Positions 7,365 to 62,414 of a DNA stretch of 64,000 nt are shown piece by piece. Location of the stretch: assembly GCA_017499595.2 (NCBI GenBank), contig CM039005.1, positions 992,001 through 1,056,000 on the forward strand. The letters are read 5' to 3'. The notes beneath the pieces are model-generated. The model was not told the origin of the DNA, did no database searches, and was given only the letters and a program-made list of their open reading frames with translations. The position numbers and the translations under genes are program-made. Source of the stretch: Psilocybe cubensis. Its lineage: Eukaryota. Numbering within the stretch: position 1 is the first letter of the stretch; every line of letters starts with the position of its first letter.

Positions 7365-9685
7365 TTATCCTTGCCGCGCCCGTTTAACCATACCACCCTC
7401 TTCGATCTCCAAGGACCCGAGTACAGATCGTCCAGAGCCAGTGGTCGCGGATTTAATGCTAGGATTATTGGTCGATGAAGTAGTCGGAACTTGATGGAGA
7501 CCCATTCCAGGTCTTGCCCCGCGGTAATTAGACGATCTGAACGAGTTTAAAGGTCAGCACAAAGGTCGCAAAAGCATTGGAAAATCATATAACATACGAT
7601 GTAGCTTCAATAGGCCTCTTCACTCCAATTCCGCTTGCAAAATTTGCTGTGGACGTGATTGGGTTGACGCCGCCCGGGAAATTGAATCCCCCAATTGCAG
7701 GTGTCGGTGCGCGAGGAGGCGGCTGTTGACCAGTGGCCGCACTCCCATTTTGTTGCTGTTGCTGCTGCCTTTGGTTCATATATCGTTGATGGTTTTGTTG
7801 AGAAATAGACGTGGCCTTGGATTGTAACTGTGCAGGTACCCCAGGTGGGGGCATCTGCGCAGCAGAGGACGATGAATTATTGCCAGAACTGGAAGCCGAG
7901 CCTGTGCTGTTTCCATAAGTAGAACTCGAACGCATTTGTTGTTGCTGTGGATTAAGTTTCGACGATAACATTCCAGCCGCCAACCCCTGGCCAGGCGCTG
8001 TCGACGTCGCTGTGGTTGTTGTGTTCGAAGTGGAGGCCGCTGGGACCATTGCCGGTTGATCTCCCGCAGAGGTTTTCCCCTCACGTAGCGCAGCTTCAAT
8101 GAGTTCTTGTCGAGACTTATTCGAGTTCGAACCTGAAGTTGACGCGTGTTTTGAGCTAATCAATCTGGCGCCCGAGATAGTCTGATCTGGAACACCCGCT
8201 GCCCTGGCAGCTGGGTGAACCGTAAACACAGCGCTATCGTCCGCCTCCTGGATACCCTGCAAGAGGCCTTCCTCGTGGTCTATTGGACGACCCATTTCTA
8301 CGTCATGCTGGATAGGTCTACCCATGTCGGCGTCATTTGCACCAATTGCAGGACCAAGATCGGCCATTGCGAAGAGCGCATCGTCTTCAGAGCCAAAACC
8401 GAAAGAATCATCATCATCTATGTCTGGTTCTTGCTTAACAGCTGATTGAGCGCCTGGGGGTTTAACTATTTGTGCGGGAGCAGGACCGCCATCCACTTTG
8501 TTTGTTTCAGAAAAAGAAACTCTTCGTTCACTGTGTTGTATTTGTTGTTGCTGCGCGTTATAGCACTGGTCGGGTGTATTGATGGCAGCGGTAATGGCAT
8601 TTAATCGTTCTTGGGCACTGGCGCGTGCCTTCCCTTTGTGGTCATTAGCCTGGTTCATGGATGTATTTGAAGTGGTTGCGGAGCCTGAGGCGATTGAAGC
8701 ATTGCTAATCCCTGGGCGCATATGAACGGGAATAGATGTGAGAGGTTTCGTTGCGTTTTGTTGGTATGGTGGTCTTGTGGGCGTAACGACAGCCTGATTT
8801 TGGAATGACATGTTCCCAGTGGTGTTCGAGGGACCAGCAGATGTGGAAGGGCCAGTAGATGAAATAGATACGTTGGGCTTCACTTCATCGCACTCTGGCC
8901 GTCTGTGTAGCACATCCTTGTTGAACTTGACCTGTATTCCAAAGAAGAATCAGATATGCTTAAAATTCCTTAACGAGATGACATACTGGTTCAACTTTCA
9001 TCTTGATTACTTCCGCAGTGTATGACTTGTCGTACAGGCAATTGCCCATTACATTGCCAAAGTTTCTCAATGCACGTTTGAGTCCATCCGTAACAGCTTC
9101 TTTCTTGCACTGAGAAATGACCATTTAAACTGTGTAGCATTCCTGCGAGTAGCAATGAAATACCTTATCTAAAGCAGCACCCTTGCTTTTCGAATTTTCC
9201 AACATCCCGTACCCAGTATCTTCGTGGAATACACCGTCCCTCAATGTGACTCGTACGATCGCAGTTACCCCCACTGAATACCTCCTACTTTCCTCGCTAT
9301 AGTCGGTAAAGTCGGTAGTCAAGCTGACAACACTTGAGCTCCACCCGTTGAAACCAAAGACTTCATTTGCCAGGTTGATGATTTTCCAACCCTCTACATA
9401 TGTCAACCTCGGCCCTCCTCCAGGCCCGGGACGCTGAGAAATATATTCTGGCCCAAGCTTGCGATCCAATTTGGCCTGCAGAATAGCGATTTTCTTAGCG
9501 GTTTCCTCCGAGATCGAGTCATTGGCAAAAGATTGCGAATTGAAGAGCGAAAACGATTGTTGTGCGTATGGAGTGCCATGCATCATGGGGTTGAAGGACA
9601 TCGGCCCATGGCTGACTATGGATGAGTTAAATGGGCTATCGGGATAGTGGGAGTTTATGAGATGGTTGCTCAGAGAGCCAGACAT
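7365..9685 (-). CDS. RAD52: DNA repair/recombination protein Rad52
   Basis: LDRKLGPEYISQRPGPGGG..LTYVEGWKIINLANEVFGFNGWSS, FHEDTGYG, KKEAVTDGLKRALRNFGN; long low-complexity C-terminus. Confidence 0.95.
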
Positions 9686-10976
9686 GGAAGGTATTCCTTC
9701 GGAGGAGCTGGGTTGTGTATGTCGCCGCTGTGCAGAGCTAATTGATAGTAAACAAAACAGAGTCATTAGAGTCGGTATCGGATATCATAAAGAGGTGCTG
9801 ATATTTGCTATACCTTTAGAATGATTGAGTCTATGCAGATAGATTACAAAGAGATAGTGGTAGTAGTAAGAGGAAGGAACCAGATGCAGTTATGACGGCA
9901 CGCGCTTGGTCTGATCTGACACGTGACCGCATTGTTAATGTTGGAGTTCCAATTCTGTTCTCGATCACTATTGGCAGGATAGATCGTCGCGACCAAATCA
10001 ACTCCTTCACCTATGTTGCACTTATTCTAGCAGGAACTTGAAAACCAAATTCTCGATTTTAAACCTGACACAGGGCTGTTCTCAATCAGACTCACTCGCA
10101 TGGGTACTTGGAGCAAACAGTCAACGTTTGCCATCTTTTAGGACCCTTGGCCATTTTCATCTGAACGGCGACCAGTCCAACGAGCCTCCAGCACAGCAGG
10201 TAATTGTCGTTCCTTTCCCGGCGCTTTCCCATGCCATGTTAAATAGCGTCGAACTTACTCTCAAGGATGTCCCCGAATATCGGGGCGACCTGATATACAA
10301 TAATGATCGTCCCACCTAGGATTTACCCATTCACCTCCTCGAACTTAATTTCACGTATCCTTCCAGATTGATGTATTGATATTCACGAATGACACATTGC
10401 TCCCCTCATCTCCCTTTGTCAATATCGGTCTACCACTATCAACAATCTTCCCGTGGACCGTACACTATTGCTACAGGATATTATCTTCAGGCTTCTGAGC
10501 TAAGGAATTTAAGTTCATGTCTCCATTCATCCATGAAACCAATAGTGACGACAGCATATGGACACGCGACAACCTTTTCGATACAGCTGATGACCAATAG
10601 CAAATGTTACATATGCTGTTTTGCCCGTGGTATATCAATTCGACTACTTCTCAGGTCATGGGCAAGTTGGTCCACTGGCAGTGACACGCACTACTAATTG
10701 CCCGATTACGCCTTCACCATGACACGATCCTCCGGTTTGGATAAAGGATAATATAGTTGATTAATATGTAGCAAAACAGTCAAACACGCCGTGGCAGAGG
10801 TAGAAATAACCTTTAAATATTTTATTTGCGTTTACTGTTTTTTACACCCTTTTTAGAACTCGACCTGAAAAGCCCCTATAATGACGCGCTGTTGTCACTT
10901 GTTTGTTTAATTGTCACGCCAAGGGCAAGCAAGTATTCGACGCGTCCGCGCAAGCTTGACCCTCACTACTACTATC

Positions 10977-20352: not shown

Positions 20353-21531
20353 TCAAATGTTCTTCACAAACTTCAGTATCTCCTGAACCACCTCATCCGG
20401 TTTCTCCTGCGGCGCCCAATGACCGGCGCCTTCGATAAGAACAAAGTCCTCCTCTTTCATATTCTTGCATGTCTTCGCTCGCATAGTCTCCGCTGCCCCT
20501 GGTATCTGATAGACACCCCAATCCTGCGCACCGCCGATGAACTTGGCTGGTATCTCAACCTGCTTGCCCACAAGGATCTTGAGGTCATCAGTCCACCGAG
20601 GCGACTCCGCCATGCAGCGGTAGAGGTTCAATCCGCCTTGAAATCCACCTTCCCTATAGTGTGCCAGAAAAACCTCCAGCTCCTGGTCTGTTAACCATTT
20701 GCACTGAGAGATTTCTTCTGTTGTAGGCGCTTTGGAGGCGAGAGCTTCCGGCATCGTCTGCTCACGAGGCATAACGTAGTAGTGTGGCAAGTTCTCGAAC
20801 AATTTAGGCGCGAGAACGGTGCCTAGCGGCCTGGGGGAATTGTTGGACTTGTGGTCAGCACTCTTCAGGTGATGATACGTCCTCCAGAAAGCAGCGAACC
20901 CCTGAGGAGGGTTGGATAGGTCCGCATTGGCCTGCGGTGTCGAAAAATAGACCATGTAATGCTTGCGCGGGGGGTCGAGCGTGCTGAGCGCTGCGTCCAA
21001 CTGCTGCAACTGCGTCTTTGCGTTCGGATCTCCTGTACCCGCAGGAGGCGGTCCAGTAAACGGTGCACTCATAAAGACCACTGACCTGAACAGATCTGGC
21101 CTCACCAGCGCACAATATCCAGCGACCGGAGACCCAAAATCTGTCCCAACCACAGCTTCGACGGATGTATATCCTAGGCTATAGACAAGGGTGACGATGT
21201 CTGCTGCAATATTCAGAATACGGTACGGCGACAGATCTTCCTCGTACGCGATCTTTGCGGAAGGCACTGCACGACTGCGTTGCTTGGTTTGACCGAACCC
21301 ACGGAGATCAGGCGCGACGACGGCATATCCTTGAGCGGAAAGTGGAGTCATAACCTTTCTCCACGAATAGGCAAGTTCCGGGAAGCCATGCAGAAGAAGA
21401 ATGAGAGGTGGTTTGGAGGAGGGATCGTGTGAAGGGGGTAATGCTTCCAATATATGCATGTCAAGATCGCCAACACCCAGGAATCGGGAATGAATGCCTG
21501 ATGGCATACCGGGCCATTTACTAGATGCCAT
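20353..21531 (-). CDS. Alpha/beta-fold epoxide hydrolase-like protein, intronless
   Basis: HGFPE..YSWR, APDLRGFG, nucleophile elbow GTDFG, GAGHW. Confidence 0.9.
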   Translation of the reverse strand: MASSKWPGMPSGIHSRFLGVGDLDMHILEALPPSHDPSSKPPLILLLHGFPELAYSWRKVMTPLSAQGYAVVAPDLRGFGQTKQRSRAVPSAKIAYEEDLSPYRILNIAADIVTLVYSLGYTSVEAVVGTDFGSPVAGYCALVRPDLFRSVVFMSAPFTGPPPAGTGDPNAKTQLQQLDAALSTLDPPRKHYMVYFSTPQANADLSNPPQGFAAFWRTYHHLKSADHKSNNSPRPLGTVLAPKLFENLPHYYVMPREQTMPEALASKAPTTEEISQCKWLTDQELEVFLAHYREGGFQGGLNLYRCMAESPRWTDDLKILVGKQVEIPAKFIGGAQDWGVYQIPGAAETMRAKTCKNMKEEDFVLIEGAGHWAPQEKPDEVVQEILKFVKNI

Positions 21532-21941
21532 AGTTGTAGAAGAAAGAGTTCTGCTATACGCCAAAGGTCGGTTATAAAGAATGCGAAAAATGATTTGTAA
21601 AACCCAAGAAATGCATTATAAAGGGCAGACGCATATCAAGAATGCCGAACCGGCCGTACGAAACCACCAAAAAGAGATGAAGATATAAAATCACAAGATA
21701 TTGTGAAACTCAAACTGTTTATAGAATCAGCGATATGTTGAACACCAAAAATGTAGACCAAGAATGAAATCCATAACACCCAAAAAAAAAAAAAAGTTCC
21801 CTTTCTGCAAAGAAAAAGAGACAAAAGTCCGAGAGAAATTCGCCTTTAAAACACAAGTTGAGGATGCCAATTGGTAGGTAATGGATGTTCGATAGATAAT
21901 AAAAGGAAATGTTCGAATTTTGAAAAGTGGTTAAAAGCTGC

Positions 21942-36612: not shown

Positions 36613-36629
36613 TAAGTCCAAGTCAAAAC

Positions 36630-37680
36630 CGGAGACGGCACGACAACCGCCACTGTTCTTGCGCGTGCCATCTACTCAGAAGGTGTCAAGAACATCGCAG
36701 CTGGATGCAACCCCATGGACCTGCGCCGTGGGTCTCAGGCCGCCGTCGACCGTGTCGTCTCTTTCCTCTCTGCACACGCCAAAACTATCACGACAACCGC
36801 CGAAATCGCACAGGTAGCTACTATTTCCGCAAACGGTGACGCCTACGTTGGAGGATTAATTGTTCAGGCAATGGAGAAGGTCGGAAAGGAGGGTGTGATC
36901 ACTGTGAAGGAGGGAAAGACGATTCAGGACAAAATTGAGATCACCGAGGGTATGCGCTTCGACCGTGGTTACATCTCACCCTACTTCATCACCAACACCA
37001 AGTCCCAACGCGTCGAGTTCGAGAAGCCCTTCATCCTGCTTTCTGAGAAGAAGATTTCCGCCCTACAGGATATCCTCCCTGCCCTCGAGGCCACGGCGCA
37101 GGCCAGACGCCCACTGACTTCATCATTGTGGAAGACGTCGACGGCGAGGCTCTTGCTGCCTGCATCCTCAACAAGCTCCGTGGTCAGCTGCAGGTGTGCG
37201 CTGTCAAGGCTCCTGGGTTTGGAGACAATCGCAAGAGCATCCTCGGTGACCTTGCTATTCTCACCGGAGGAACAGTGTTCACAGACGAGCTCGACGTCAA
37301 GCTCGAGCGTGCGTCAGCGGAGATGCTCGGTTCGACTGGAAGCATCACTGTCACCAAGGACGACATGATCATTCTCAACGGTGAAGGTGCAAAGGATCAG
37401 ATTGCTGCATGGTGCGAGCAGATCCGTGCCTTGATTGCGGACCCCACGACGGGCAACTTTGACCGCAGCAAGCTTCAAGAACGTCTCGCGAAGCTGAGCG
37501 GAGGTGTAGTTGTCATCAAGGTGGGCGGAGCATCCAAGGTCGAGGTTGGCGAGAAGAAGGACAGGTACAACGACGCGCTCAACGCGACACGCGCCGCTGT
37601 CGAGGAGGGTATCCTCCCCGGAGGCGGTGTTGCGCTCCTCAAGGTGTCGTTGCAGCTCGCGACGGCGAGTGCCCTTGCTG
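36630..37680 (+). pseudogene. HSP60: Truncated, frameshifted HSP60 (chaperonin 60) fragment
   Basis: Runs from [10 protein letters not shown] to [15 protein letters not shown]; no N- or C-terminus; frameshift at ~37117; GC-rich relative to flanks. Confidence 0.9.
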
Positions 37681-38240
37681 CCCGGAGAGGCGGCAAACAG
37701 GGTCAAGTGCTAATGCTACTGCTGCTGCCAATGCCAATGCCGCTGCCGCTGCTGCCTCGAGTAAGCTTTGCTGTGAGATGTGAGCTGCGTTGGCTGAAAA
37801 GCACAGGCAGAGGCAGATGTGATGAAGCCTGTGGATGAGAGTGTGTTGCTCGGAGAGGATGCGCTGGTCACAGAGGAGGTGCACAAGCAGCATTCTCATG
37901 CACAGCAGGGGTATCAGCACCCCATCCTCGGCGCGCCGCACTGGTCTGCGGGCAGGAAGGAGAACGTGCACGCACACTAGTCCGATATTGCATGCGCTTT
38001 CAATGTACACACATAACATGTCCCTTCACTATACTCAAATGAATAAAAATTTAAATTGAATAATTATGACCACTTTCTAACCTAATAAAACTATTGCTTG
38101 ACATTGTAAACCGGGCCCCAAAAATTGGGTGGATTTGTAAGACTAAAAAATTATTGTATTGGTTTACATTGTATTGTAATCTACTGCCTATTTAGTTGAT
38201 GGCATGGTCCCACATAGCGAATGCGTGATAAAACAGCCTT

Positions 38241-40773: not shown

Positions 40774-42939
40774 TCATTCAAGTACGGCTTCTTCAATGAT
40801 TTTCCGGCTCAAAGGTGACCTTGGATGAAAGGCACAATCAAATTTCTTCTTATGACTTGTGCAATGTAAGAAGACAAACGCAGGAAAGCAAATGAAAAAG
40901 TAAGAACGCACTTCATAAGACCGTGATCTTCGATATCGCCATTGATTTCTATGTCGTTCCCATTTTCATCTTTTCTAGGGGTGATAGTGAAGGTTGCCAA
41001 AACCGAGGCAATCATCAGCCAAACCTAGTATAGGGATATCTCGATCAACATATTTCGCAGTCTACCTCATGGATTTACTGAAAACTTACAGACAAACTAG
41101 CCACATGTTTGCCGGCACATATCCTGTCGACAGATTATATCTTATCAATATTGAATGACATTAAGTGAAACTAAGCTGAACTTGCCTTCGCCCAAATCCG
41201 TATGCAAGTATTCTTTCTTTGTCGAGCTTGCCTTCTACAAAATATCTTTCTGGGAAAAAAGCTTGCGGTTCTGGATAGACTTGTTCGTCGTACGACATAG
41301 CCCTTAGCGCATTTGGTCAAAACAATGGTCTCAAGCTATCTGGCATAATATACTGACCATGTATTGGTGAGGACAATTGTTCCTGAATCAAAGCGAACGT
41401 GTTCAGATTTAAAGTTGAATGAATTGAAATGATAGTCACCTTTAGGCATAAAGTAACCCCTGTAGTGATCATCTTCCATGAGACAGTGAGGTATGCCAAG
41501 AGGAAAAGGAGGCCTCAAGCGCAGAACTTCTCTGTAAATCGCTTCAACATAAGGAAGCGACGCCCTGTCCGCAAGGACCGGAAGACGTTTGGCACCAATT
41601 ACTCGGTCAATCTCGAGTTGAGCCTTCTTTTGAGTGTCTGGATTTACGGCCATTAGGTAAAAGAAAGATCCTGTAAAAGATATTGTCTGCAAAAGCATAC
41701 AGTTGAACTTAATGGTGCTATGTGAATGTTGAACTAACTTACAGTGTCTGACGCAGCTACACGGGAAAATAAACAAACATGAACAGGACGCCATTTACAA
41801 CACGGAGCGAAAAGCACAGACCTCCGTACACGGTATATGCAACACTTGTTATGATGTCTTCCTCTTCCTGAGAACTAGCTGTCGTCTGTTGCTTTTCATA
41901 AAATTCGCGAACCAAAGATGGTACAGCCGTGCCGTCTTTCTATAGCAATCATCTATTCATTACATATCAAACATCCAGATTAGTTGAATAGGTACCCACG
42001 AAACTCTTTTTCACATAATCCAGTGGCAATCGTACAACCTCATCTGTCATACGACGAATTATTGCAGCCTTTTTTTGAGATGATGCGCCCGGGAACCATG
42101 CGGGGACATGTCGCAGGGGTGGAAATATGTCTATGAGATTGGCACCTGGTACTACCAATCGAGTTCCAAGGGAAAGCGCCTCGTCAGCTAGAGTCACGCA
42201 TGGATCGTTGAGATCTGCGATATCGTATCCATACATCATCTTGATTGTCAAGGCGGCAGAGAACCTGAAGATTATAAGATTCATTTGAAGCACGAGGCTG
42301 CGCAGACTCACATCTTGCTATGGGCATCGAATTGTTCCGGGGAATCGAGGAGGCCTTGGAGGAGTTTCCTGACTTGCGCAATTTGGAGTGGTTCGTAGCT
42401 CTTGGACGCATCGAGGTTAAAGTGCTTTTGGCATACTTTCCTCCGTTTCCTCCATTCTTCTCCGTACGGCATCACGGCTACGTTAATATTCCAACCCATC
42501 CTTTGAAAGATGAATACGCATCATGTATAACTTAGTAAAGTCGGCGTACAAGTCTGTGACAGGCTTTGCTGGCCTATCTGCGTAGATCCTCGCTCTTTCA
42601 GGGTGTTCGAGTAGTTCTTCTGCGACATTAATGTTGTTGATGACGACGACATGATTACCCAGGACTTCGGCATGAACAATTGGACCTAGGAGCAGTTATT
42701 GGAATGAAATACTTCAATAGCTAATGAGTATACAACTGACTGTTGTACTTCTTTCCCCATTCCGCGTATACTAGTGCAGCGTTGGTAGTTGGGAAATCGA
42801 GTAAGTTTCCAATAAACGGCTTTGGGGTCGGCCCAGGAGGGTAGTTCCGTTGTTTTCCAACGACGAAGAACTTTAGCAATCTTTTGATTACCCACAAGAG
42901 AAGTGCGGATATGCATATACTGAAAATCATAGCAGTCAT
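40774..42939 (-). CDS. Cytochrome P450 copy D
   Basis: PPGP, AASDT, EVLR, PERY, YGFGRRICAG. Confidence 0.9.
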
Positions 42940-48740: not shown

Positions 48741-50082
48741 ATGGCCGACCGTATTTCGATTTCGTCACTCTCCGAGCGTACATCAGGAGAAAAGAAATGG
48801 GTCATGTTGCAGCCACTTCTACTTGCTCATGGGTATAGACTCCGCCCCAGATATCAGCCAGACTGGAAGCCATCCTGGAAAAAAAAATGGAATTTTAGAA
48901 GCATAATGCAGTGCCCGGATAGTATTTCTCTGCCTGTATGAGGCCGCCTGCTCTCATCCCTAATCATACTGACTCTGAATGATCTAGTACTATAAGCTCA
49001 TGGATGCCGTACGAATAAAAGACGGTGTCGAAGTGGTGATCAAGAGAGTAACGCTGGAAGAAGACAATGTGCCACTTCTACAATACTTGAATTCTCCGGA
49101 AATGCTCAAGGATCCACGAAATAACGCTGTGCGCCTACTAGAAGTAATTACAGTTCCTCATACAAGCGATATCTTTCCACGACCTTCGGTGCTCCTTGTG
49201 ATGCCAAAGCTTTTCCCTTTAAGTACTTCGCATCTTCCATTTCGACACGTCAGGGAAGTTCTCGATGCTCTGGAACAAATTATGGAGGTACTTTCTTCCG
49301 AATTTCTAAGCAATATAATTGACTCACCAGTGGAATTAATTTACAGGGTATTATCTTTCTGCATGAGCATAGGATTGCCCATCGGTATGTGCTTTATGAT
49401 GGCAACTCAATGTTTTCTTCAGCTCACACACGCTACAAATGGATTATTCAGCGACGCTTGCACTCACAACTTCATGATGGACCCGACAGATGTCATTCCC
49501 AGCGGGTTTCACTTCTCATACCACTGGCACCAACCTGACGGCATAACTCGTATTCACTTTAGGGACCGATGTTTAGTTCCACGGGTCAAGTACTACTTGA
49601 TTGACTTTGAAACAGCTGAAATTTTCCCCCCAAACTCCCTTACCATCGGTAGATATGGGCAGGTGAAAGACGTCCCAGAGATGTCCGAAACAGTGCCGTA
49701 CGATCCCTTCAAATTGGATGTATACCAGGTTGGATCGCTAGTCAAGACGCTCATCGAGGTAATTCTAGTTACTGTTTTGAGGGACGAATCTCATTTGCAA
49801 CAGTTATATGAAGGACTCGACTTTCTGGAACCCCTCAGAGACATCATGAGATGCCCTAACCCTGAACTCCGACCAACCGCTGCCCAATCTTTGGAAAAAT
49901 TGCGTGACATTGTGTCTCAATTAGATCAAACATATCTCGCTCATGAGATTTGGTATAAAGAAAGTACACCTAGCTATCGGAAATATCAAACGGTATCCCC
50001 TGATGAAAAGTTCAATAAGTGGAAGAAAATCCAGTTCATTTGTGGGGGCAAGGGGTCAACAACACCTGATACTATTCACTGA
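48741..50082 (+). CDS. Agaricomycete AgaK1-like protein kinase, copy 1
   Basis: GYRLRPRYQPDWKPSW, DAVR..VVIK, IAHR/DACTHN, YYLIDFE, YDPFKLDVY, RPTA; 4 introns. Confidence 0.85.
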
Positions 50083-50239
50083 GATTGGAGGCATCTTTTG
50101 TATTCCATTTAAATCTGGGTTTTACTCAATGAATCGCGGTACAATTTCTCGTATCCAACTTTGAAGTTTGCATGATACAACCACTATATATAGCCGCTTA
50201 AGCTCCCTATATATTTATACCATTATAGGTGTAGTCTTC

Positions 50240-50790
50240 ATTTATCTGCAACATTTGTCGTGTTTGCGTTTGATTATCATCGGTGTTGGATCATTCAGAT
50301 GGATATCCAAAGATGTTTGGCAAAGAGACCGAGATGTTCACACTGTGTCGTGGACCTGTGCTGCTGTTCAATCTTCCGAGTCCTCGAGACAATAGTTTTT
50401 GGATGATGCAGACAAATTATATTTGTTATTCCCACTCCATTCACTTGATTATAGATATGTATTAAACTCCATGAATTTCCCCGTGCTCAGCTCTGCGCTT
50501 GTAGGTATGCTTTGCATATCTAAAAGTATTAGTAGAAGCAGTCAATTGATTTTGGGCATGGACGTGATAGACAACCTGTGTATCAAAACGCGGTGCCGCA
50601 GTCAAGCCACATTACTATCCATGATGACTGTGGAGGACTGTGGTAGTCAATATTTGATTCTTAAATAATCCATTGCTTGTGGTCACCTTTGGTACTGTAC
50701 TGCTGAATATGTAGAACGGGTAGCCATAGTTAATTCGCTTCATAATTCCGAAGTATGAGTGTTGAGTTAGTACCGAACGTCTGGTCAATA
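50240..50790 (-). pseudogene. Decayed 3' remnant of kinase-partner gene (paralogue of 53487-54731)
   Basis: HVHAQNQLTASTNTFRY and HSVNISVSLPNIFGYPS align with partner 2; in-frame stops (e.g. 50462-50464); 5' part absent beyond the MITE. Confidence 0.75.
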
Positions 50791-50799
50791 ATAGTACTA

Positions 50800-51692
50800 C
50801 ACCTCGGGATATTCAGAAAATAGAGTTCGCACGAAGTAGGTAATCAAACGTTGCAACATACTGGAAATATATTGAGGCCATCCATGTTCACATTTATTTG
50901 GAATATAATGCTGCCAAATATATTAAGTTTCTTACCACATACAAAGGTGCTTTATATTTTAAATTGAAAGGTGAAAGAAACTGAACACACGATAAGTCTC
51001 AGTCGAAGGAAAAAGGACTCTATTGTTAACCTGAACACACGATAAGTCTATAAACTACGTTAGCTGTTTTCTATGAACAACACAAAAGCAAATGTACCTC
51101 AGTCGAAGGAAAAAGGACTCTATTGTTAACCTGAACACACGATAAGTCTATAAACTACGTTAGCTGTTTTCTATGAACAACACAAAAGCAAATGTACCTC
51201 AGTCGAAGGAAAAAGGACTGAGGTACGAAGAATGAAACTGCTCTGTATAAGTGAACTGCTGGTAGCTATGGAAGTTGATGAGGAATACGCGAAGGTGATG
51301 CATTGAACACCACAGGAAGAGTGACTGCTGAATTTGTGAATGAACAGGGGCTCTCGGAGCCCGTGTTCCGAACGACGAATGAGGAAGGTGCAAGTATAAA
51401 ATGGGAAATGTTGGGAAATGTAAAAAGAAAGAAAATGTGAATGAACAATCAAGCAGATACATATTCCAACAAAAGGAACTTCATATCAGTAAATACTTGC
51501 CATTTTACTGATATGAGGTTCCTTTCAATTTAAAACATAAAGCACCTTTGTATGTGGTAAGAAACTTGATATATTTGACAGCATTATATTTCAAATGAAT
51601 GTGAAAGACGGATGGCCCAATATATTTCAAGTATGTTGTAACATTTGATTACCTATTTTGTGGGAATTCTATATTCTGAATATCCTGCCGTG
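50800..51692. mobile_element. MITE / foldback element with ~170-bp TIRs
   Basis: 50800-50970 is an imperfect inverted copy of 51521-51692; CAC...GTG ends flanked by TA; no credible coding capacity. Confidence 0.85.
50998..51219. repeat. Perfect 100-bp tandem repeat (~2.2 copies) inside the MITE
   Basis: AGTCGAAGGAAAAAGGACT at 51001, 51101, 51201. Confidence 0.95.
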
Positions 51693-51965
51693 TAATGCTA
51701 CCCTGGCCTATCGGCCGGGATTAAGATTTGATTAAGACTTGAGTTGCGTTTATTTACACTTATTTATCACGAGTCCCAAGGACAAATAAACTCGCCTTTT
51801 GATCGGCCGGGTCAGACTGTCAGAACTACGTTCAGTGACTCGCTCTCGAACCTGGACCTGTGCTTGCTAACGACTCATTGCAATCATTTTCTCATCTACT
51901 CGTATCCGACGCTAATGTCTTAGAGTATCTGTTGGGCTACAGGCACTGTATATTTCCTGAATACT

Positions 51966-53330
51966 ATGACCGACCATCAGCACCAAGTTTCAATGACATC
52001 GCTGTCGTCCGAGCTCTCATCTGCAGAAAAAGAATGGGTTATGTTGCAGCCACTTCTGCTATCTCATGGATATCAACTTCCCCCCAGATATCAGCCAAAC
52101 TGGAAACCATCTTGGGAAAAGCGTTGGAACTTTAAATACAAAACTGAATGCCCGGATTTTTTTCCTTTGCTTGTATGGGACTGTATGCTATATTCCTGAC
52201 TGATACTGACCGAAATGAACTAGCATCATGATATCATGGACGCAGTGCGAGTGAAAGACGGTGTTGAGGTGGCCATCAAACATGTGGTGTTGGAAGAGGA
52301 CAATGTGCCACTTCTACAATATTTGAATTCGCCAGAAATGCTCAAGGATTCACGGAATAACGCTGTGCGCCTTCTTGATGTAATTTCTGTCCCTAATACG
52401 AGCGATATCTTCCCCAAACCATCAGTGCTCCTTGTGATGCCAAAACTTTTCCCTTTATTTTCATTTCATCTTCCGTTTCGGCATGTCAGAGAGGTACTCG
52501 ACGCCTTGCAGCAAATTATGGAGGTATTTTCCTTGGAATACTTAAGGAATATGGATAGTATGTTCACCAATAGACTTTTTCTGCAGGGTATTGTCTTTCT
52601 GCATGAACACCGAATTGCCCATCGGTATGTGCTTTTAAACGACAGTTTAGCGTTCTGCGCAACTTACACGCGCTATAATATGGCTTGTTCAGCGATGCGT
52701 GCACTCACAACTTCATGATGGACCCAACAGATGTCATACCCAGCGGCTTTCACCTCTCAAACAATCGTTGCCAACCTGATGGCGTAACTCGTATTCACTT
52801 TAGGGACCGCTGTTCATTTCCACAACTCAGGTACTACTTGATTGACTTCGAAACAGCGGAATTTTTCCCCCCAAATTCCCTTACTATCGGTAGATATGGG
52901 CAGGTGAAAGACGTCCCAGAGATGTCCGAAACAGTGCCGTACGATCCCTTCAAATTGGATGTATACCAGGTTGGATCGCTCGTCAAGACACTCATTGAGG
53001 TAATTCTAGTGACCGTTTTGAGGACTGAAACTCATTTTTTATCAGTTATATGAAGGACTCGACTTTCTGGTGCCCCTTAGAGATATCATGAGATGTCCTA
53101 ACCCTGAACTCCGACCAACCGCTTCCGAATCTTTGAGTCAATTGCATGGTATTGTATCTCAATTAGAGCAAACTTATCTCTCTCATGAGATCTGGCTCAA
53201 AGACAGTACACCCATTTTTCCGAAATATCAAACTGTATCTCCTGATGAGAAGGCAAAATGGTGGAAATTTGGGAAGTTGGCTCAGTTAATTTGTGGGGCG
53301 AACAAGTCGACAAGGCTCAATGTTCTTTAA
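51966..53330 (+). CDS. AgaK1-like protein kinase, copy 2
   Basis: Same motifs and intron positions as copy 1. Confidence 0.85.
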
Positions 53331-53486
53331 TACACGTGCTATCTCGAATTATATTTCAAGTTTGGTATAGTCTTGTATTACACAGTATGATGTATACCAC
53401 TTTCAAGTATACAATTTAAAGATTTGAAAGTACCATCAAACTAATCTCAGTTCAAGGTTGTTGTTCATTCGTGTTTTCGCTGACTT

Positions 53487-54731
53487 TCATATTTGGGGTG
53501 TTTGTTCTTGCTCGGTGTCGAAGTTGGATGGATATCCAAAAGTGTTTGAAGACGACACCGATACATTCACACTATGCCCTGCCCTATGACGACCTTCTGA
53601 GTGATCTTGCTGTCCCTGTTGGTTTGTCCAGTGTGTCGGCGTTTGACCTTCCTCGGTTCCATAGCCGCTGGACGAGGTGGACAAAATGGACGAATTATCG
53701 TTATGCTCCCCCTGCTGACTTGATGACATATACTGAAGTCCATGAATAAGTGCTTGCTTGTCACCGTGGTGATGGCTATGCTTGGGATATCCAAAGGTAT
53801 TAGTAGACGAAATTGATAGATTCTGGGTATGGATATGCCTGTGAGGACTGGCGTATCCCGTTTCGGGTTCATCAGTAGAAGCCGATTCTACTGCGATATA
53901 TTGACTATAATACGGACGTATAACTCAGCGGTCAGCACCTAATCCTAATATAATACATCGCTTTTGCTCACCTTTGATGCTCTGGTGCCGAATACAAAGA
54001 AGACTCAGATATTCCTATGATTCCGCTTGAAAAATTTTCAGTTGAGTGTGGATTCTGTAATTGCGCATTATGTTTGCTACCCACCTTCCAACTAAAGAAG
54101 CCTGTGCACCTCCAGAAAGGTGCATTGGTTTTTGAGTGATGTGGGTTGTCTCAACATGGCCATGTAGTCTGGGAGGAGGGGGCAAGCTGGTTGGCACTTG
54201 CGACTGTACTTGCGGTTGTTGTACTTGAGGCTGTGTCAGTGACACCGCCCTTTCGATTGCCTCTCTAGCTTCGTGTGAAATTATGGGTATGGTAAACTTT
54301 GTAGCAGCGGAAGCGTCCTAGAATAAGAACACACTGGTAAAACTTTCCAATTTAAAGTCTCCAAGAAAGTTAACTCACAGAAAAGCTTTTTTCAAGATCA
54401 TTCAACATTACTTCTATAGCAGGAATTTGGATCTTCCTCACAGAATTCCAATTCCATATCGCATTTATGAAGCCATTTAATTTCTTCTCCAGAGATGCGA
54501 CCAATTGTCGGGCCCTATATAGGACACACATCAGTATAGTATATTTGATTAGAGAAAGACTTACGTGTCAAGTTGTTGAAGGTAAGAATCTCTATCCTTT
54601 TTCGTTAGACCTTTCTCGTTGAGAATTGCTTTTCGGAACTCGTCAATGCGCGTGATATAACGGCGGACTGCAGCCCGTTTCTCCTCCTGAGTGGCAAGCC
54701 ACTGATGGATGATTTGGTCCTCGCTAGACAT
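53487..54731 (-). CDS. Kinase-partner protein 2: predicted helical N-terminus plus disordered Ser/His/Gln-rich tail (5 exons)
   Basis: Continuous spliced frame from MSSEDQIIHQW to ...SNTFGYPSNFDTEQEQTPQI*; canonical GT-AG introns. Confidence 0.7.
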
Positions 54732-56481
54732 GATAATACAGTAAAGGGAGGAATAATTCCAACGATGAAATCAACGTGAACGGTGATACCTTTTATAAAG
54801 TTTACACAAACCTGCCACTCATTTCAAATGGAGTAATGTCATGTCAAGGTGCTACAAAAGAATGGAGTCGTTGTATGGTTCTCCCAAGTTATTGATTACA
54901 GATTTGGCTCCGGTGAAAAGCTGTCGTAGAGATTCTCTCAAAATACCACTCAGAGGAACGGTTGGCACACGGAAAGACGGGACGGCCAAATACCAGCAAT
55001 TCATTGGTGTGTGTGTGTGTGGCGGCAGAAGATCCAAATATGATTCGCAATAATGCTTCTTCTAGGAAGAACAAGAAGGTTGAGAGAGGCCTCCAAAGTA
55101 TGACTGGAGAACAATGAGGTGGAATGCATGAGGGTGAGTTCTGAAAAGTGAAAAAATATCTCACTGAGCAAATTCTGATCCGATTTGGCAATAATCTATA
55201 TGGGCATAAACGATGGACGCAGAAGAAAGATTTCCGAAGAGGCGGCGATTAACCTTTGTTGCATCGCTGTCTGAGTGATTACAACACCGAGAGAAGATAA
55301 CTGCAACATAAGCACGGTCGACACAAATGTTCATGTTAGAGTTTACGCGCCCATTGAAAACTCGCATTCGTACAAATAAATCGACTTTTTCTCGTAGGGC
55401 ATCAGGCAGGAAGGCTGCATATATGAGGAGGAAACTTTGTCTAGAGGAGTGATTTTCCTCTAGTGAGCCTGAATAAGCATGAGCAGTGCAAATTTCCAGA
55501 TTTGAAATATTGGTTCCCAGAAGACTGCGCAGTCAGAAGGAGCATGCATCATTCAGGACTCTCCAATTGCCATTATCCATGCTGAAGGTTGGATCGATAA
55601 AAACAACTTTTTCCGCGGAAAGCCCTTCAAAGAAGAGGGGTTACTTGGAGATGACTCGACCCGAAAGAGTGTAAATGATGATTTGAGCTCGATTGAAGAA
55701 GATTTCACAGGATGATGGAATCGATTATACTGATTAATCCAGCCAGTTTCCAGCTGCGATAAGACTTCCAATGTTTGACAGTTGAATTGAAAATACTTCC
55801 AGCGTCCGCCAGTATATCACAGGCAGTATATATTTGGACCAGCGGTGATGCACCAATCGATACACACACACCCATAGCTCCATCCGCATCTCCGGAAAGA
55901 AGGTCAAGCACGGTTCATGATGGTCTCGTGGATGCAAGTATATGGTCAGATAACAGTCTCAACAAGGACCGTGGAACTGAAATGCGTTCAGTAATGAGTC
56001 AGTTCGTCGGACGATCGCGGTTCTTTTAAGAATTCGACGATTTGTACGGCCACTGAGTCAGAGTAAAGAATAACTTCGTTCAGGTGGGACTGCGGGAACT
56101 TAAAGCGGCACGGTGGATAAAGGAGAATAGCAACAGAAAGTTCATGGGTCCAGTTCAGCGATCTGTTGGATTTAGGGAGTAAGATAGTAGTAGTGAGACA
56201 ACGACTGCAACTTGTAGCCACTGTTTGTTATGAGTTTCCATGCCTTTGAGAACAAACAAATAAGTTCTTAATGCCATCAACTTGGCACGCGGTTGACTAT
56301 CATGGCTGAACATCTGAACAGTGAAAAGCCTGAGCTACTCACGAGTCGCACATCATAAACAGCGGTTCTCTGTTGTGAGCTCCTCTTATGATCGTTTATA
56401 ATCACTGCTTGCCCCCATAGCTGCATTCAGTGCACAGGGCCATATCATACTCCTACAACTGCCATTGATTCGACGTCAGCA

Positions 56482-57818
56482 ATGCCGTTACTCAGCAGAA
56501 TCGTGGAAAACGAAGAGGCCGAGTACGACGGACTACTTACTCAAGACGAAGCAGACTGGGTCGAGCTGCAACCTTTTTTACTCGAACATGGATATCAACT
56601 CCGCCCTAGGTATCATCCAAACTGGAAACCGTCATGGAGACGGCCTTGGAATTTTTTCTACAAAGATATGTGGGATTGTCCTGACCAAATTGGATTGAAT
56701 GTTTGTATTTCTGTTAAATTATTACGTTTTAGCTAATATCTTTTTAGCGGTGGAATTTGATTGATGCCGTTCGACTTCAGGACGGAAAGAACGTCGTCAT
56801 AAAACGTGTGGTTCTCGAGCACGACAATATTGCAATCCTTCAGCTTTTAAATAAACCTGAAATGCTCAGCGACCCCCGAAATAATACAGTCCCACTTTTG
56901 GATGTGATATATCTCCAGAACCTTTCTGGGGAACAAGGCAAAGACAATGCATTGATTGTAATGCCAATGCTATACCCTTTTTTTCGTTCTATTTGCCGTT
57001 TCATCATGCAAAAGAGGTTGTGGACGCTCTCGAGCAATTGATTCAGGTAATATCATGTTATTCTTAAATCGTAGGTCCCACTAGTACTGAATCGTCAGCT
57101 TCACAGGGTGTACAATTTTTACACGAGCACCAAATTGCGCATAGGTGAATTTTGTCCATTTAGTCTTCATCTTTTCTGACCAATGACAATACATTAGAGA
57201 CGCTTGTATCTTGAATTTCATGATGGATCCGACGAATGTCCTTCCTAAAGGCTTTCATCATGCGAACGCATCCTGCCAGCCTGATGGGAAGACCCCAATC
57301 GAGTTCAACGATAGATGTTTAGTCGGTACAGTGAGATATTATCTTATTGATTACGAAACCGCGGATATTTTCCCTCCAGGAACTCTGTGTATTGGACGTT
57401 ATGGGCAGGAGAAAGACGTCCCTGAGATGTCAGATACCGTGCCATATGATCCTTTTAAACTAGACGTATATCAGGTGGGATGTGTGATTAGAACACTTAT
57501 AGAGGTACGTTGCAGTTTGATCGCGTTTGGAACAGAATAGCCAGACTGAATGTTCAGGAGTACGAAGGGCTGGACTTTCTGGCCCCAGTTCGTGATTCTT
57601 TGACCTGCCAATCTCCAGAAACAAGACCGACAGCTACAGAAAGCCTCTCAATTCTTCGAGCTACCGTATCCAATGTCGAACCGATAACGCTGTCAAAGAA
57701 AATTCGTATGAAATTTGATGATTCCGGAGACTCAGAAGAACATATTGCTCCGGTCACCACTGCCATTCTTCCACATGCAGCTCTATTTAATTTTGTAAAA
57801 TCGTGTTTTGGGTGGTAG
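56482..57818 (+). CDS. AgaK1-like protein kinase, copy 3 (apparent 1-nt frameshift in a T-run)
   Basis: GYQLRPRYHPNWKPSW, AHR/DACILN, YYLIDYE, YDPFKLDVY; frame breaks at 56978-56984. Confidence 0.8.
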
Positions 57819-58209
57819 GATTCCTGAGAGACATGGTTAGTGGAGATTACATTGCTCACCGTACAATTAGCTAAACAGATTCTTGTTTTGATTATTGATT
57901 GGTTAGATTCAACTTGGATTCGATGAATCGTCAGCTTCTACTTGTTTTTTGTGTTATACTATGAATATTAAGCAATATGCAAACGATAACTGGTGTACTC
58001 TTTATTCTCTGTCGCAATGGTACCGAGAAAAAAATGGAAGACGTGGTACGCTCTTTCAAACGCCCCATCTATCTCACAATCCATACTCTTGGTTCTTTGA
58101 GGAGGTTTATGACGAGCGCATACTATGGTGCAGGGTCTTTCTTATCACTTGCACCGTCTGCTACTGGCGGAAGTTGAGGGTAGGTTCCTCGGAATGTATG
58201 GTCATCGAT

Positions 58210-59283
58210 CTATTGGAGTCCTCCGGGTCCAAGTCCAGTTTGAAATTGATCAAACATGTCGTACGCGACTACTCGACGTGTGTAAGATACAATAGGTCCT
58301 TTCGAGCCTCTGTGATATGAGAGAAGTTGACAAGGGTAAATGACAACAAGTACAAGAAACATTACCGTCCATGATGCGCTTGCGAAGCAGAGCCTCTAAG
58401 CCTCGATGAAGGGCCTCCTTCATCTGTATTATCCGCCTGAGTAACTCCTTGAAGCAGCTGTGAGTCCAGTGGACGTTGGTCGGAGGGTAATGGTAGTTCA
58501 CTGATAACTGAGTCATTGATTAGAACTTAGAGATACAGTGTGCTTACAACGTACGGATGACCCATGAACTTTGATTTCCCTCTGAATATATCCTTAAGAT
58601 TCTTCAGAGAGCGAGGCGAACGCAGCCTTGGTTGTTCTTGAATTATCTCCGTTGCATTTTGAGCGTCATAAGCTTGAGAAATTAAGGGGTGTTCGTTGCC
58701 CAAATCCGCCGTTCTTGAACTGATCTTTCAAGGCATCAGCATGACATGCGTCTGGTACCAGACCTATAAAGCAAAGACATACAACCCCAGGTAGCTGTGG
58801 TCTCGTTTAGCAGAGTCTTGCGCTTGAAGAACGCCCTGCTTGTTCAGGCGATGCTGGTTCTCAGATGCTTTCTAAACAGAACGGTACGTTAGGAGAGCTT
58901 CTAGTCAAAGAGAGAAAGCAAGTCGAAACCTTGTAGTCAAATTGCAGTGTCATCAGGATACCTTTGAGCTTATCGACGCTTGCCATCGTGGGTGGGGCAG
59001 TGAAATATCCAATTAACGTATTCTCCGTCTTTCTTTTCAGACCTTTAATATGTGATTCGTGTCTAGAAAAGTTTATGAGATCATGCGTTGAGTAGAACAT
59101 GAATAAATTGTACTTCTGTAACTCCTGTAGGTATTTTTTGCGGATCCGCACGTCGGGCTCCTTTTGGAACCTGGATCGAATTGCTAAGATATCATTGAGA
59201 TATGAATCAAGCTTCCTAATTATTTCTTGTCGCTCTCTCTCAATCTTCTCTCGTTCTTGATTTGGGGAAGGATTAGTGGACAT
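58210..59283 (-). CDS. Kinase-partner protein 3: predicted helical N-terminus plus disordered tail
   Basis: N-terminal exons align with partner 2 with the same intron phases (2 then 0); 3' exon structure less certain. Confidence 0.6.
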
Positions 59284-60212: not shown

Positions 60213-62414
60213 CTAGTTTGGATCCAGAACGAGTTTACGAGCAGCGGGAGAGCGGACGGTGAACGAGCAGGCAAATGGCTCTTTACGGCTGTAGCGCACA
60301 TAATACACGTGTTAGATGTCATGGACGCCTCATAGATAAAGGGAGTATGGACTTACATCAGCAGGCCTGACTCTTCGTAATTGGTGTCGACCTCGATTTC
60401 TTTGCCGTTGGCGTCTTTGGCTTTGGACATGGTGAAACAGGCAAGGGTTGTTGCCATTTGAAGCCACAGCTAATAGTGAACGATCAGTGAGTCTTAGATT
60501 CCCTATATGATCATTAACGACACTTACAGAGGTGCTAGCGACGGACTTGCCCACACAGATTCTGTAAAGAATCGAAATGACATTCGTGAATAAACAGACA
60601 ATATGTGTGATCTTTCGTGAAGCGTACCTGCGACCGAAGCCATAGGCCAAGATCCTGTCATCATCGTTCAACTTGCCGTTCTCATCGAAGAACCTGTCCG
60701 GGTTGAACGCGAAAGGTTCAGTGTAAACTTCCTCGTCGTGCGACATAGCCCTGATCCGTAAGTTAGAGAGAGTTTGCTATAACACACTCTGAATACAATC
60801 TCACCAGATATTAGGGTAGACAACGGTTCCTGAAGAGATGGTAAATTATCAATCCCGGTACATGCGGACAAGTAGTAGGCTTACCCTTGGGGATCAGGTA
60901 TCCCTTGTAGTGATCGTCTTCAGTGACGGCATGTGCGACGCTGATGGGAATGGGGGGCTTGAATCGCAGAACCTCCCTATAAATAGCTTCGAGGTAGGGC
61001 AGAGATTTGCGGTCTTCGAATGTGGGCAGGCGCTTAGATCCTACTACGCGGTCGATTTCTTCCTGGGCTTTGCGCTGGACATCGGGGTTGAGAACCATCT
61101 GGCAAATGAAGGTGTTGGAGGCTGAGATTGTCTGTAAGGTTGTGTCAGTCAGCTAATCGAGAAACCATATTTGAGCTAAACGTACTGTGTCCGATGCAGC
61201 TGTAGAGAAAAGAGAAGCCTTTGAGTCCAGGAAAGAAGGTTGAACGAGTGAAAGACAATTTACCTCCATATACAGTGTATGCGACGTTCTTGATCAACTC
61301 TTCCTCTTCCTCTGAAGCGCCAACGGCGTACTTCCTCTCGTAGAAATCAGTAACCAAAGAAGGTACAGCGGTGCCTTCAGCCTATAGCACAAACCCGATC
61401 GCCATCAATGACATCACCCAGTTAATTTTAACAAAAGTGCAACCCACCAAGCTCTTCTTGACGAAATCCGTTGGAATTCGCATCATCTCTTCTGTGAGCT
61501 TCTTGCACTCTACAGCTGCCTTGTGAGAGGAGGCACCGGGGAACCATGCGGGGATGTGTTTGAGGAAGGGGAAGATGTTGATGAGACTTCCTCCAGGCAC
61601 GACGAGGCGGCCTCCGATAACGTTGCCCTCTTCCGCGACTTCGATAACCCGGTCGTCGACTGACTTGATATCATAGCCGTACATCATGCAGGTAGTGAGA
61701 GAAACAGAAAAGCTGTACAAGGAGAAAAGTGATTAGAGAAGTGGCTAGAAATGAAAAAGAAGACATATTGGCATACATTTTGTTGTGCGTTTCAAAGTCC
61801 TGGGGTGTCTCAAGCAGAGATCGAAGGAAGCGCTGTACTTTCTCTGTCTGGAGAGACTCGTACTTGCGGACTGCCTGTGGGTTGAAATTCTGCTGGCAGA
61901 TTCTCCTATGCTGTCTCCACATGTCGCCGTATGGCATCAATGCAACATTGAAGTCCCATCCCATTCTATCGTCAAGTGAACATGATTTAGAGCTGGATGT
62001 TAATAGATAGACGGAAGGATACTCACAGAGGGAAGATCGGTAAAGTAGGTCTGTCAGAATATAACTTTGCGCGGACTTCAAGGAGCTCGATCGCATCCTC
62101 GAGTTTATTCAGGACGACAACGTGATTTCCCAGTGACTCGGCGTGTACAATAGGACCTTGCAGCACAAATTAATTGGTTAGCCAGTTAAATGTTATGGTA
62201 TAGCACTGAACTCACTATCGTATTTCTTTGCCCAGTCGGCATAGTTCTGGGCGAATTTCTCCGATGGGAAGTCGAGTGCGTTTCCAATCAGAGGCAATGG
62301 CTTCGGGCCAGGGGGATAAGGCGCCCGCTTCCCCTTCGAAGACAGGACATCCGCCAGCTTCTTGAGTGCGAACGCAGCTAGAATGAAGTACACAAAAGAG
62401 GATGAGAGAGCCAT
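60213..62414 (-). CDS. Cytochrome P450 copy E
   Basis: PPGP, AASDT, EVLR, PDRF, YGFGRRICVG; same exon layout as copies A-D. Confidence 0.9.

Follow-up and report, generated by a model that had tools for sequence, protein, structure and literature searches.

Contig CM039005.1 of Psilocybe cubensis carries three protein-kinase genes on the plus strand, here called K1, K2 and K3, each of which runs tail to tail into a gene on the minus strand (psiP1, P2 and P3, hereafter the partners). Do kinase and partner form a two-gene system that is kept as a unit, or does their repeated adjacency follow from the way in which the locus has grown? We analyzed a window of 64,000 nucleotides (nt) of this contig, to which all positions below refer; neighbors elsewhere in the genome are known here from locus tags only, which we cite by the last four digits of their JR316_000 numbers. 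The locus is probably a segmentally duplicated array of divergent kinases that carries a lineage-specific orphan gene.

Probable block duplication and independent decay

Exact mapping of proteins to DNA bore out the tail-to-tail layout given in a preliminary description of this locus, with a minus-strand gene located 3' of each of the three plus-strand kinases (Table 1). The stop-to-stop distance is 156 nt for K2/P2, 391 nt for K3/P3, and about 169 nt for K1/psiP1. K2 maps from 51993 onward; the start given for it in that description, 51966, is an in-frame ATG upstream of the mapped start codon.

The kinases are members of a larger set, as thirteen paralogues carry tags on the same contig (8844, 8845, 8847, 8853, 8855, 8856, 8877, 8879, 8897, 8912, 8914, 8944, and 8945). 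At the DNA level, K1 and K2 are 81% identical over 1246 nt, and K3 is about 68% identical. Exons of K1 and K2 agree at 73–90% and introns at 64–80%, while the 3' flank, at 49%, is at the random level; the K1/K2 similarity stops at the gene borders. The kinase tree groups K1 with 8855 (99/96), K2 with 8856 (88/68), and K3 with 8853 (99/99). The idea of the pair as the unit of duplication is supported by two relationships: 8854, rather than P2, is the closer relative of psiP1, and the tree joins K1 with 8855, the locus-tag neighbor of 8854. By the order of locus tags, 8854 lies between two kinase paralogues of this contig, 8853 and 8855. Kinase and neighbor were probably copied together. Such joint copying is also expected whenever a segment with closely packed genes is duplicated.

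What became of the copies speaks against a module that needs both halves. The dead psiP1 lies beside an intact and apparently transcribed K1; in this strain, a frameshifted K3 lies beside an intact P3; and the kinases 8855 and 8856 bear consecutive tags, with no annotated gene, and hence no annotated partner, between them. The members of a pair are therefore neither retained nor lost jointly, as those of an obligate two-gene module would be.

We propose that a lineage-specific array of divergent, catalytically intact-looking kinases has expanded by segmental duplication in P. cubensis, and that a small, fast-evolving orphan gene would have been copied along because it sits within 160–400 nt of the kinase 3' end. 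Single members of the copied blocks may then have decayed independently, and the repeated kinase–partner adjacency would be a by-product of block duplication rather than evidence for an obligate two-gene system.

Table 1. Features of the kinase–partner locus (positions in the 64,000-nt window)
Feature	Position	Strand	Basis and remarks
K1 = JR316_0008844 (P0031)	48741..50082	+	intact five-exon open reading frame, GT-AG introns, modeled on K2
K1 exons	48741-48935, 48988-49287, 49347-49384, 49452-49758, 49804-50082	+	
psiP1, remnant of P2/8854-type partner	50252..50602	-	tblastn similarity
MITE-like insertion between psiP1 and K2	50798..51692	.	inverted repeats and junction in run X4
K2 = JR316_0008845 (P0006, 369 aa)	51993..53330	+	exact mapping
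K2 exons	51993-52172, 52224-52523, 52587-52624, 52693-52999, 53046-53330	+	
P2 = JR316_0008846 (P0001, 335 aa)	53487..54731	-	exact mapping
P2 exons	54731-54565, 54514-54379, 54317-54085, 54025-53972, 53904-53487	-	
P2 tail repeat r1	53775..53849	-	aa ~216-240, H..N.S[IV]SS[ST]NTFGYP; conserved in P0002 and psiP1
P2 tail repeat r2	53520..53594	-	aa ~301-325, motif as in r1
P2-K3 head-to-head spacer, 1750 nt	54732..56481	.	without recognizable gene
K3 = JR316_0008847 (P0009)	56482..57818	+	exact mapping; frameshifted
K3 annotated exons	56482-56700, 56748-56957, 57107-57144, 57198-57504, 57558-57818	+	
P3 = JR316_0008848 (P0003, 263 aa)	58210..59283	-	exact mapping
P3 exons	59283-59114, 59062-58930, 58871-58783, 58719-58555, 58500-58366, 58309-58210	-	

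The decayed partner and the adjoining insertion

The segment 50240–50790 had been described as a pseudogene. It does hold the remnant of a partner, but similarity is confined to the shorter interval listed in Table 1. The remnant has four to five in-frame stops and represents the tail only, in which both NTF[GR]Y motifs survive. In tblastn, it matches residues 197–308 of the 8854 protein (P0002; 42% over 124 residues, E 8e-14) and residues 220–335 of P2 (P0001; 34% over 123 residues, E 4e-9), with no match to the first ~196 partner residues. The DNA of psiP1 and P2 is alignable only at repeat r1 (57 nt, 79%).

Between psiP1 and K2 lies an element of 895 nt that resembles a miniature inverted-repeat transposable element (MITE), with TA flanks and terminal inverted repeats of ~180 nt (50792–50971 versus 51700–51521, 88% alike). 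Sequencing run X4 lacks the element, with 50797 directly followed by 51693, and depth over the element is raised several-fold, which points to a multi-copy, polymorphic insertion. The element also holds an internal tandem repeat at 50998–51219. Without it, the distance from psiP1 to the start of K2 would be only about 300 nt, so that the N-terminal half of the partner was either deleted or never copied.

State and transcription of the kinase genes

K1 matches the annotated P0031 without a difference over 317 residues. Evidence for transcription comes from sequencing runs X1 and X2, which are RNA by guess only. Their contigs lack introns 1–3 of K2 and show no other letter difference; if the guess is right, K2 is transcribed and its gene model holds. 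A piece of K1 exon 1 is found with no differences in both runs, and intron 4 of K1 is taken to be spliced because a loose contig end at 49758 runs on into exon 5, whose first 14 letters it holds. K1 is intact and appears to be transcribed. The two runs give no cover over P2, P3, and most of K3, which has no bearing on the expression of these genes.

Two kinds of error in the gene models were corrected. The annotated proteins of K1 (8844, P0031) and 8855 (P0008) read in frame through the 45-nt intron 4 (49759–49803) and begin downstream of exon 1. In K3, the annotation hides a frameshift in a run of seven T (56978–56984) by treating 56958–57106 as a 149-nt 'intron'. At this site, run X4, from another strain, has one more T (8 T, at a depth of 84.5 of 84.5) and reads in frame, and run X3 has the form of the window. 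The T-run of K3 reflects either a null allele or an error of the assembly in a homopolymer.

A family of divergent protein kinases

By profile similarity, the plus-strand genes belong to the eukaryotic protein kinases. The Pfam Pkinase model scores K2 at 27.9 bits (E 1.9e-6), below its cut-off of 31.7; single kinase exons have no Pfam match, and a kinase exon alone has no match in the PDB. With a profile built from 18 members of the family, 815 different kinase sequences of the PDB are matched at E ≤ 0.001, MAPK13 most strongly (E 5.8e-9). Of these 18 members, at least 90% retain K79, H172, and D174, and all have N179 and D224; in our own interpretation of the columns, the β3 Lys, the HRD Asp, the catalytic-loop Asn, and the DFG Asp are thus conserved. 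The DFG motif itself appears as DFE or DYE, and no canonical glycine-rich loop was seen in the kinases. In the Atlas, the clusters nearest to K2 are 100% Eukaryota and mostly Basidiomycota (scores 0.99), and the structure matches of K2 are kinases (template-modeling (TM) score 0.53–0.84). K1–K3 are divergent eukaryotic protein kinases that are probably active.

The kinases were labeled 'AgaK1-like' in the preliminary description, and their membership in that family is putative. In its available text, a preprint on mushroom development describes an expansion of FunK1 and lists AgaK1 as a family. These FunK1/AgaK1 expansions of Agaricomycetes ('Other' group) resemble the locus described here in that they consist of divergent, Basidiomycota-centered kinases with many paralogues on one contig; unlike at this locus, a recurrent neighbor gene is not mentioned in the available parts of that literature. 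A kinase exon used as a query gave 27 matches, JR316_0008845 (P0006) and 8847 (P0009) included, and no Coprinopsis protein was among them.

Beyond P. cubensis, the gene models P0004, P0005, and P0021 of P. cyanescens fuse two to three kinase units head to tail. Cytochrome P450 genes flank the kinase block of the window, one on each side (41339–41794 and, on the minus strand, 60333–61152), and P0005 includes an ortholog of the latter. In the window, this P450 and the kinases lie on opposite strands, suggesting that either the locus was rearranged between the two species or the gene models are wrong. Other genes of the window comprise a TRI5-like terpene synthase fragment (1860–2270), DUF4419 (4225–5832), Rad52 (9128–9784), an alpha/beta hydrolase (20356–21615), and a CCT/TCP-1 chaperonin subunit (36616–37835).

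Partner proteins: a predicted helical bundle with a disordered tail

An exhaustive phmmer search of 1.84 billion representatives with P2 as the query returned two matches, P2 itself and JR316_0008854 (P0002, 308 residues), which is 43.9% identical to P2. P3 was searched with its first exon in a word index; exon 1 of P2 and exon 1 of P3 each found one protein in this index, the P. cubensis gene itself. P2 and 8854 share invariant blocks that include MSS.DQIIH.WLAT, AAVRRY, SLPPPPR, and NTFGYP, the latter twice, as part of a ~20-residue tail repeat (H..N.S[IV][SA]S[ST]NTFGY[PA]) present in two copies in each protein. Serine plus threonine make up 22–25% of the P2 and 8854 tails, and glutamine, asparagine, and histidine another 19–24%. 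The repeats are absent from P3, and a direct reading of the kinase sequences found no NTFGY. Across the window, tblastn with the P2 tail found itself and psiP1, all other matches having E ≥ 1.6.

The AlphaFold2 (AF2) model of P2 has helices at residues 3–38, 44–81, and 86–107, for which the predicted local distance difference test (pLDDT) is mostly 70–90, a confident model obtained from only two sequences. No confident structure is predicted from residue ~130 onward, and pLDDT is below 50 throughout residues 151–335. The AF2 model of P3, made from a single sequence, has helices at 7–41, 45–72, and 80–127 and a tail of low confidence. Charged residues account for 30–35% of the partner N-domains.

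Neither sequence nor structure ties these domains to a known family. Pfam scans of P0001, P0002, and P0003 at E ≤ 0.1 gave only Laminin_II (0.012) and the CEP63 coiled coil (0.035), both far below cut-off, and an exon-level scan gave nothing. Against PDB sequences, the P2/8854 profile found only two CIN85 coiled-coil chains (E 0.03–0.06) and P3 found none. The Atlas held no usable feature match for P3, whose structural neighbors reach a TM score of at most 0.42 normalized by the query. A Foldseek search of the PDB with the partner model gave no match at E ≤ 0.001, the best row being a designed antiparallel three-helix bundle (E 0.18). The VIA lists for both models contain generic helical bundles at Z 8–11. 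For P2 they are headed by the vinculin tail (Z 11.4, root-mean-square deviation (rmsd) 2.6, 106 aligned residues), and for P3 by BAG and by Not5/CNOT3 N-termini (Z 10.5–11.2; the best at Z 11.2, rmsd 3.6, 98 aligned residues). The tool quotes a Z of ~13 for helical bundles, a value above all of those for the partners, and a family missing from its lists is not thereby excluded. The best structural likeness of the partners is thus to generic antiparallel three-helix bundles such as BAG, the CNOT3/Not5 N-terminus, the spectrin repeat, syntaxin Habc, and the vinculin tail, and CNOT3 entries are present in the VIA lists of both P2 and P3. At 3–17% sequence identity, this is a common arrangement and no proof of family membership.

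As modeled, the partners are real orphan proteins, each composed of a predicted charged, antiparallel three-helix bundle of ~110 residues and a disordered tail with abundant S, T, Q, N, and H. They would work independently, as cytosolic proteins that are adaptor-like or carry short linear motifs, and a link to the kinase, such as phosphorylation of the tail, is possible but optional.

P2 and P3: one family?

P2 and P3 had been said to share an N-terminus of ~100 residues. This claim found no statistical support at the level of sequence: tblastn and BLASTP gave no match between the two, phmmer with P2 does not retrieve P3, and hhalign of the P2/8854 profile against P3 gave a probability of 0.4% and E 0.15, with the alignment in register. 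The best local alignment has 22 of 71 residues identical. Shuffle tests gave a local z of 3.5 (reached by 17 of 2000 shuffles) and a global z of 4.9 (0 of 2000), shuffling being a lenient null for helical sequences. The tails are as unrelated as had been described, no similarity being found by BLASTP or tblastn.

Gene structure gives a different picture. Exact mapping verified that intron positions and phases are the same in the two genes: intron 1 is in phase 2 in both, within codon 56 (P2) or 57 (P3), and intron 2 lies in phase 0 at position 303 of both coding sequences. At about five introns per 800 nt, we estimate the chance of both coincidences at ~1e-3 to 1e-2. P2/8854 and P3 share gene structure and fold, and do not share detectable sequence or profile similarity. 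Homology of P2 and P3 is unproven, but the intron positions, the matching helix boundaries, and the position of the genes make it plausible and, in our judgment, quite likely.

Neighbors of kinase relatives in metagenomes

If the pair were a general unit, partner-like genes might be expected beside related kinases. A scan of metagenome contigs yielded 40 loci (249 kb) with kinase relatives of 27–43% identity, and none of them matched P0001, P0002, or P0003 (best E 0.21). Other neighbors were found instead of the partner. The sequence extends 1.2 kb or more downstream in 21 of the loci; among these, thirteen have a DUF6535 gene, one has Ypi1 and a mirrored kinase, one has a tandem kinase, and six have nothing identifiable; in a subjective reading, the downstream minus-strand open reading frames of these six include none that is partner-like.

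The DUF6535 (PF20153) gene is co-oriented with the kinase and lies 0.5–1 kb downstream of it (E 1e-22 to 1e-29), with a conserved first exon (...FNREADEYDRDFHKKYHDDLNTTLIFV). The thirteen loci (L001, L003, L006, L010, L012, L015, L016, L025, L026, L027, L031, L033, and L036) are 75–89% alike in DNA and represent a multi-copy two-gene block. As at the locus in P. cubensis, a kinase relative has been duplicated together with a fixed downstream neighbor. Unlike the partners, this neighbor is co-oriented, large (open reading frames of about 450–540 plus 370–390 codons), and of another family, and the window itself is devoid of DUF6535 sequence. A separate arrangement is seen at L014:26-4230, where the order kinase (+), Ypi1-type phosphatase inhibitor (+), Ypi1 (-), kinase (-) is mirrored.

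Points against a by-product of duplication

Several observations weigh against the reading of the pairing as a by-product of block duplication. First, the rates of the two genes do not match. Protein identity is 89.9% for K1/8855 and 86.5% for K2/8856, compared with the 43.9% and 42% that P2 and psiP1 share with 8854; this is unlike a simple co-duplication and implies gene conversion among the kinases or very fast evolution of the partners. Second, the pairing recurs at least four times when 8853/8854/8855 is counted, in a block of tags (8853–8856) that is known by order alone and not by orientation. The pattern of two kinases with one gene between them is found at 8845/8847, 8853/8855, 8877/8879, and 8912/8914; at the first two sites a partner lies between the kinases, and the last two are known from the tag pattern alone. 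Third, P3 has diverged strongly from P2 and yet has kept its position, intron layout, and fold, which could reflect long-term retention of the pairing. Fourth, the kinases of the metagenome loci are distant, so that the test of their neighbors bears on the wider family only.

Alternative explanations

The strongest competitor, which we nonetheless regard as unlikely, is a cognate module in which the kinase phosphorylates, or docks on, the S/T-rich tail or the bundle of its neighbor, both halves being needed and retained together. It would account for the tail-to-tail geometry at three sites of the window, for the fourth partner between kinases 8853 and 8855, and for the congruent relationships of K1 with 8855 and of psiP1 with 8854. 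Catalytic residues kept across 18 family members and short conserved motifs within tails of 22–25% S+T would suit a kinase and its substrate. The independent decay of K1/psiP1 and K3/P3, the adjacency of 8855 and 8856, and the 40 metagenome loci devoid of partner-like sequence all stand against it. The fused P. cyanescens kinase models would likewise suggest that no convergent gene intervenes, a weak point given that these models may be wrong. A complex prediction for K2 with residues 1–130 of P2, made without alignments, scored 0.01 where the mark is 0.34, a result that bears in neither direction. In the available texts of the literature searched, supplements excluded, no description of the kinase–partner pairing was found.

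At the other extreme, the partners may have no function at all and be open frames, decaying or wrongly annotated, that lie in spacers between the kinases of the array. The family is seen in one species only, the psiP1 copy is clearly dead, and the 43.9% identity of P2 and 8854 would be near a rough estimate for neutral drift at the ~30% nucleotide divergence of the K1/K2 introns. We consider this improbable: three copies keep frames of 263–335 codons open through four to five spliced introns, P2 and 8854 are conserved in patches that include long invariant blocks, and helical bundles are confidently predicted both for P2 and for the unrelated-looking P3. Only one indel between strains was seen in the coding sequence of a partner; it adds 3 nt to the P2 tail and preserves the frame.

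A more far-reaching version of the cognate module, for which we see little prospect, is a young, fast-diversifying signaling or non-self-recognition module of Psilocybe and its relatives, in which the cognate kinase would switch the bundle and the twin NTFGYP repeats of the P2/8854 type would serve as an amyloid-like or phospho-regulated switch. If so, the divergence of the partners (44%, versus 69–90% for the kinases) would reflect diversifying selection, and the patterns at 8877/8879 and 8912/8914 would be further pairs.

The last alternative, already suggested in the preliminary description, holds that the partners are MLKL/HeLo- or HET-S-like effectors of cell death or allorecognition, or one half of a toxin–antidote pair, with a kinase-controlled switch made of amyloid or prion-like repeats. 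The order of parts in P2 and 8854 is indeed that of HET-S/HeLo, HELLP, and MLKL effectors: a helical N-domain is connected through a long disordered linker to two short C-terminal repeats (~20 residues with N, G, and alternating hydrophobics), and the gene is a fungal one whose rapid divergence is like that of recognition genes. A wheat resistosome is also in the VIA lists through its coiled-coil domain, at a Z of 9.2 that is within the tie zone of generic bundles. The MLKL/HeLo domain is a four-helix bundle, however, and the partners are predicted to have three helices, with a charged N-helix in place of a hydrophobic one. The Pfam models HeLo, Helo_like_N, SesA/B, HET-s, and MLKL are unmatched at E ≤ 0.1, and structure prediction and fold search gave generic three-helix bundles only, with no MLKL, HeLo, or HET-s among the best 50 Foldseek rows or among the best 50 VIA rows each for P2 and P3. 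The P2 repeats are 70–85 residues apart at a pLDDT of about 30–43. The neighbor of HET-S/HeLo-type effectors is an NLR that carries the motif of the effector, whereas the neighbor here is a kinase without it and P3 lacks the repeats; no motif common to the effector C-terminus and the adjacent gene product was found, unlike in amyloid pairs of the HET-s/NWD2 type. With the decay of single members arguing against an addictive pair as well, we regard this alternative as far-fetched, and the proposed cognate kinase–substrate, MLKL/HeLo-like, or toxin–antidote system draws no support from Pfam, fold searches, gene decay, or neighbors elsewhere.

Implications for kinase expansion in Agaricomycetes

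If the segmentally duplicated kinase array is the right reading, the locus would be a clean case of block duplication that carries, and then erodes, a lineage-specific orphan gene. The kinase + DUF6535 blocks suggest that this kinase family tends toward duplication in fixed two-gene blocks. For the Agaricomycete-specific kinase expansions, no experimental explanation was found in the available texts of the literature searched. If the partners were kinase-controlled after all, they would add a new family of small helical proteins with a repeat-bearing tail and, as far as those texts go, would provide a first handle on the function of these large expansions.

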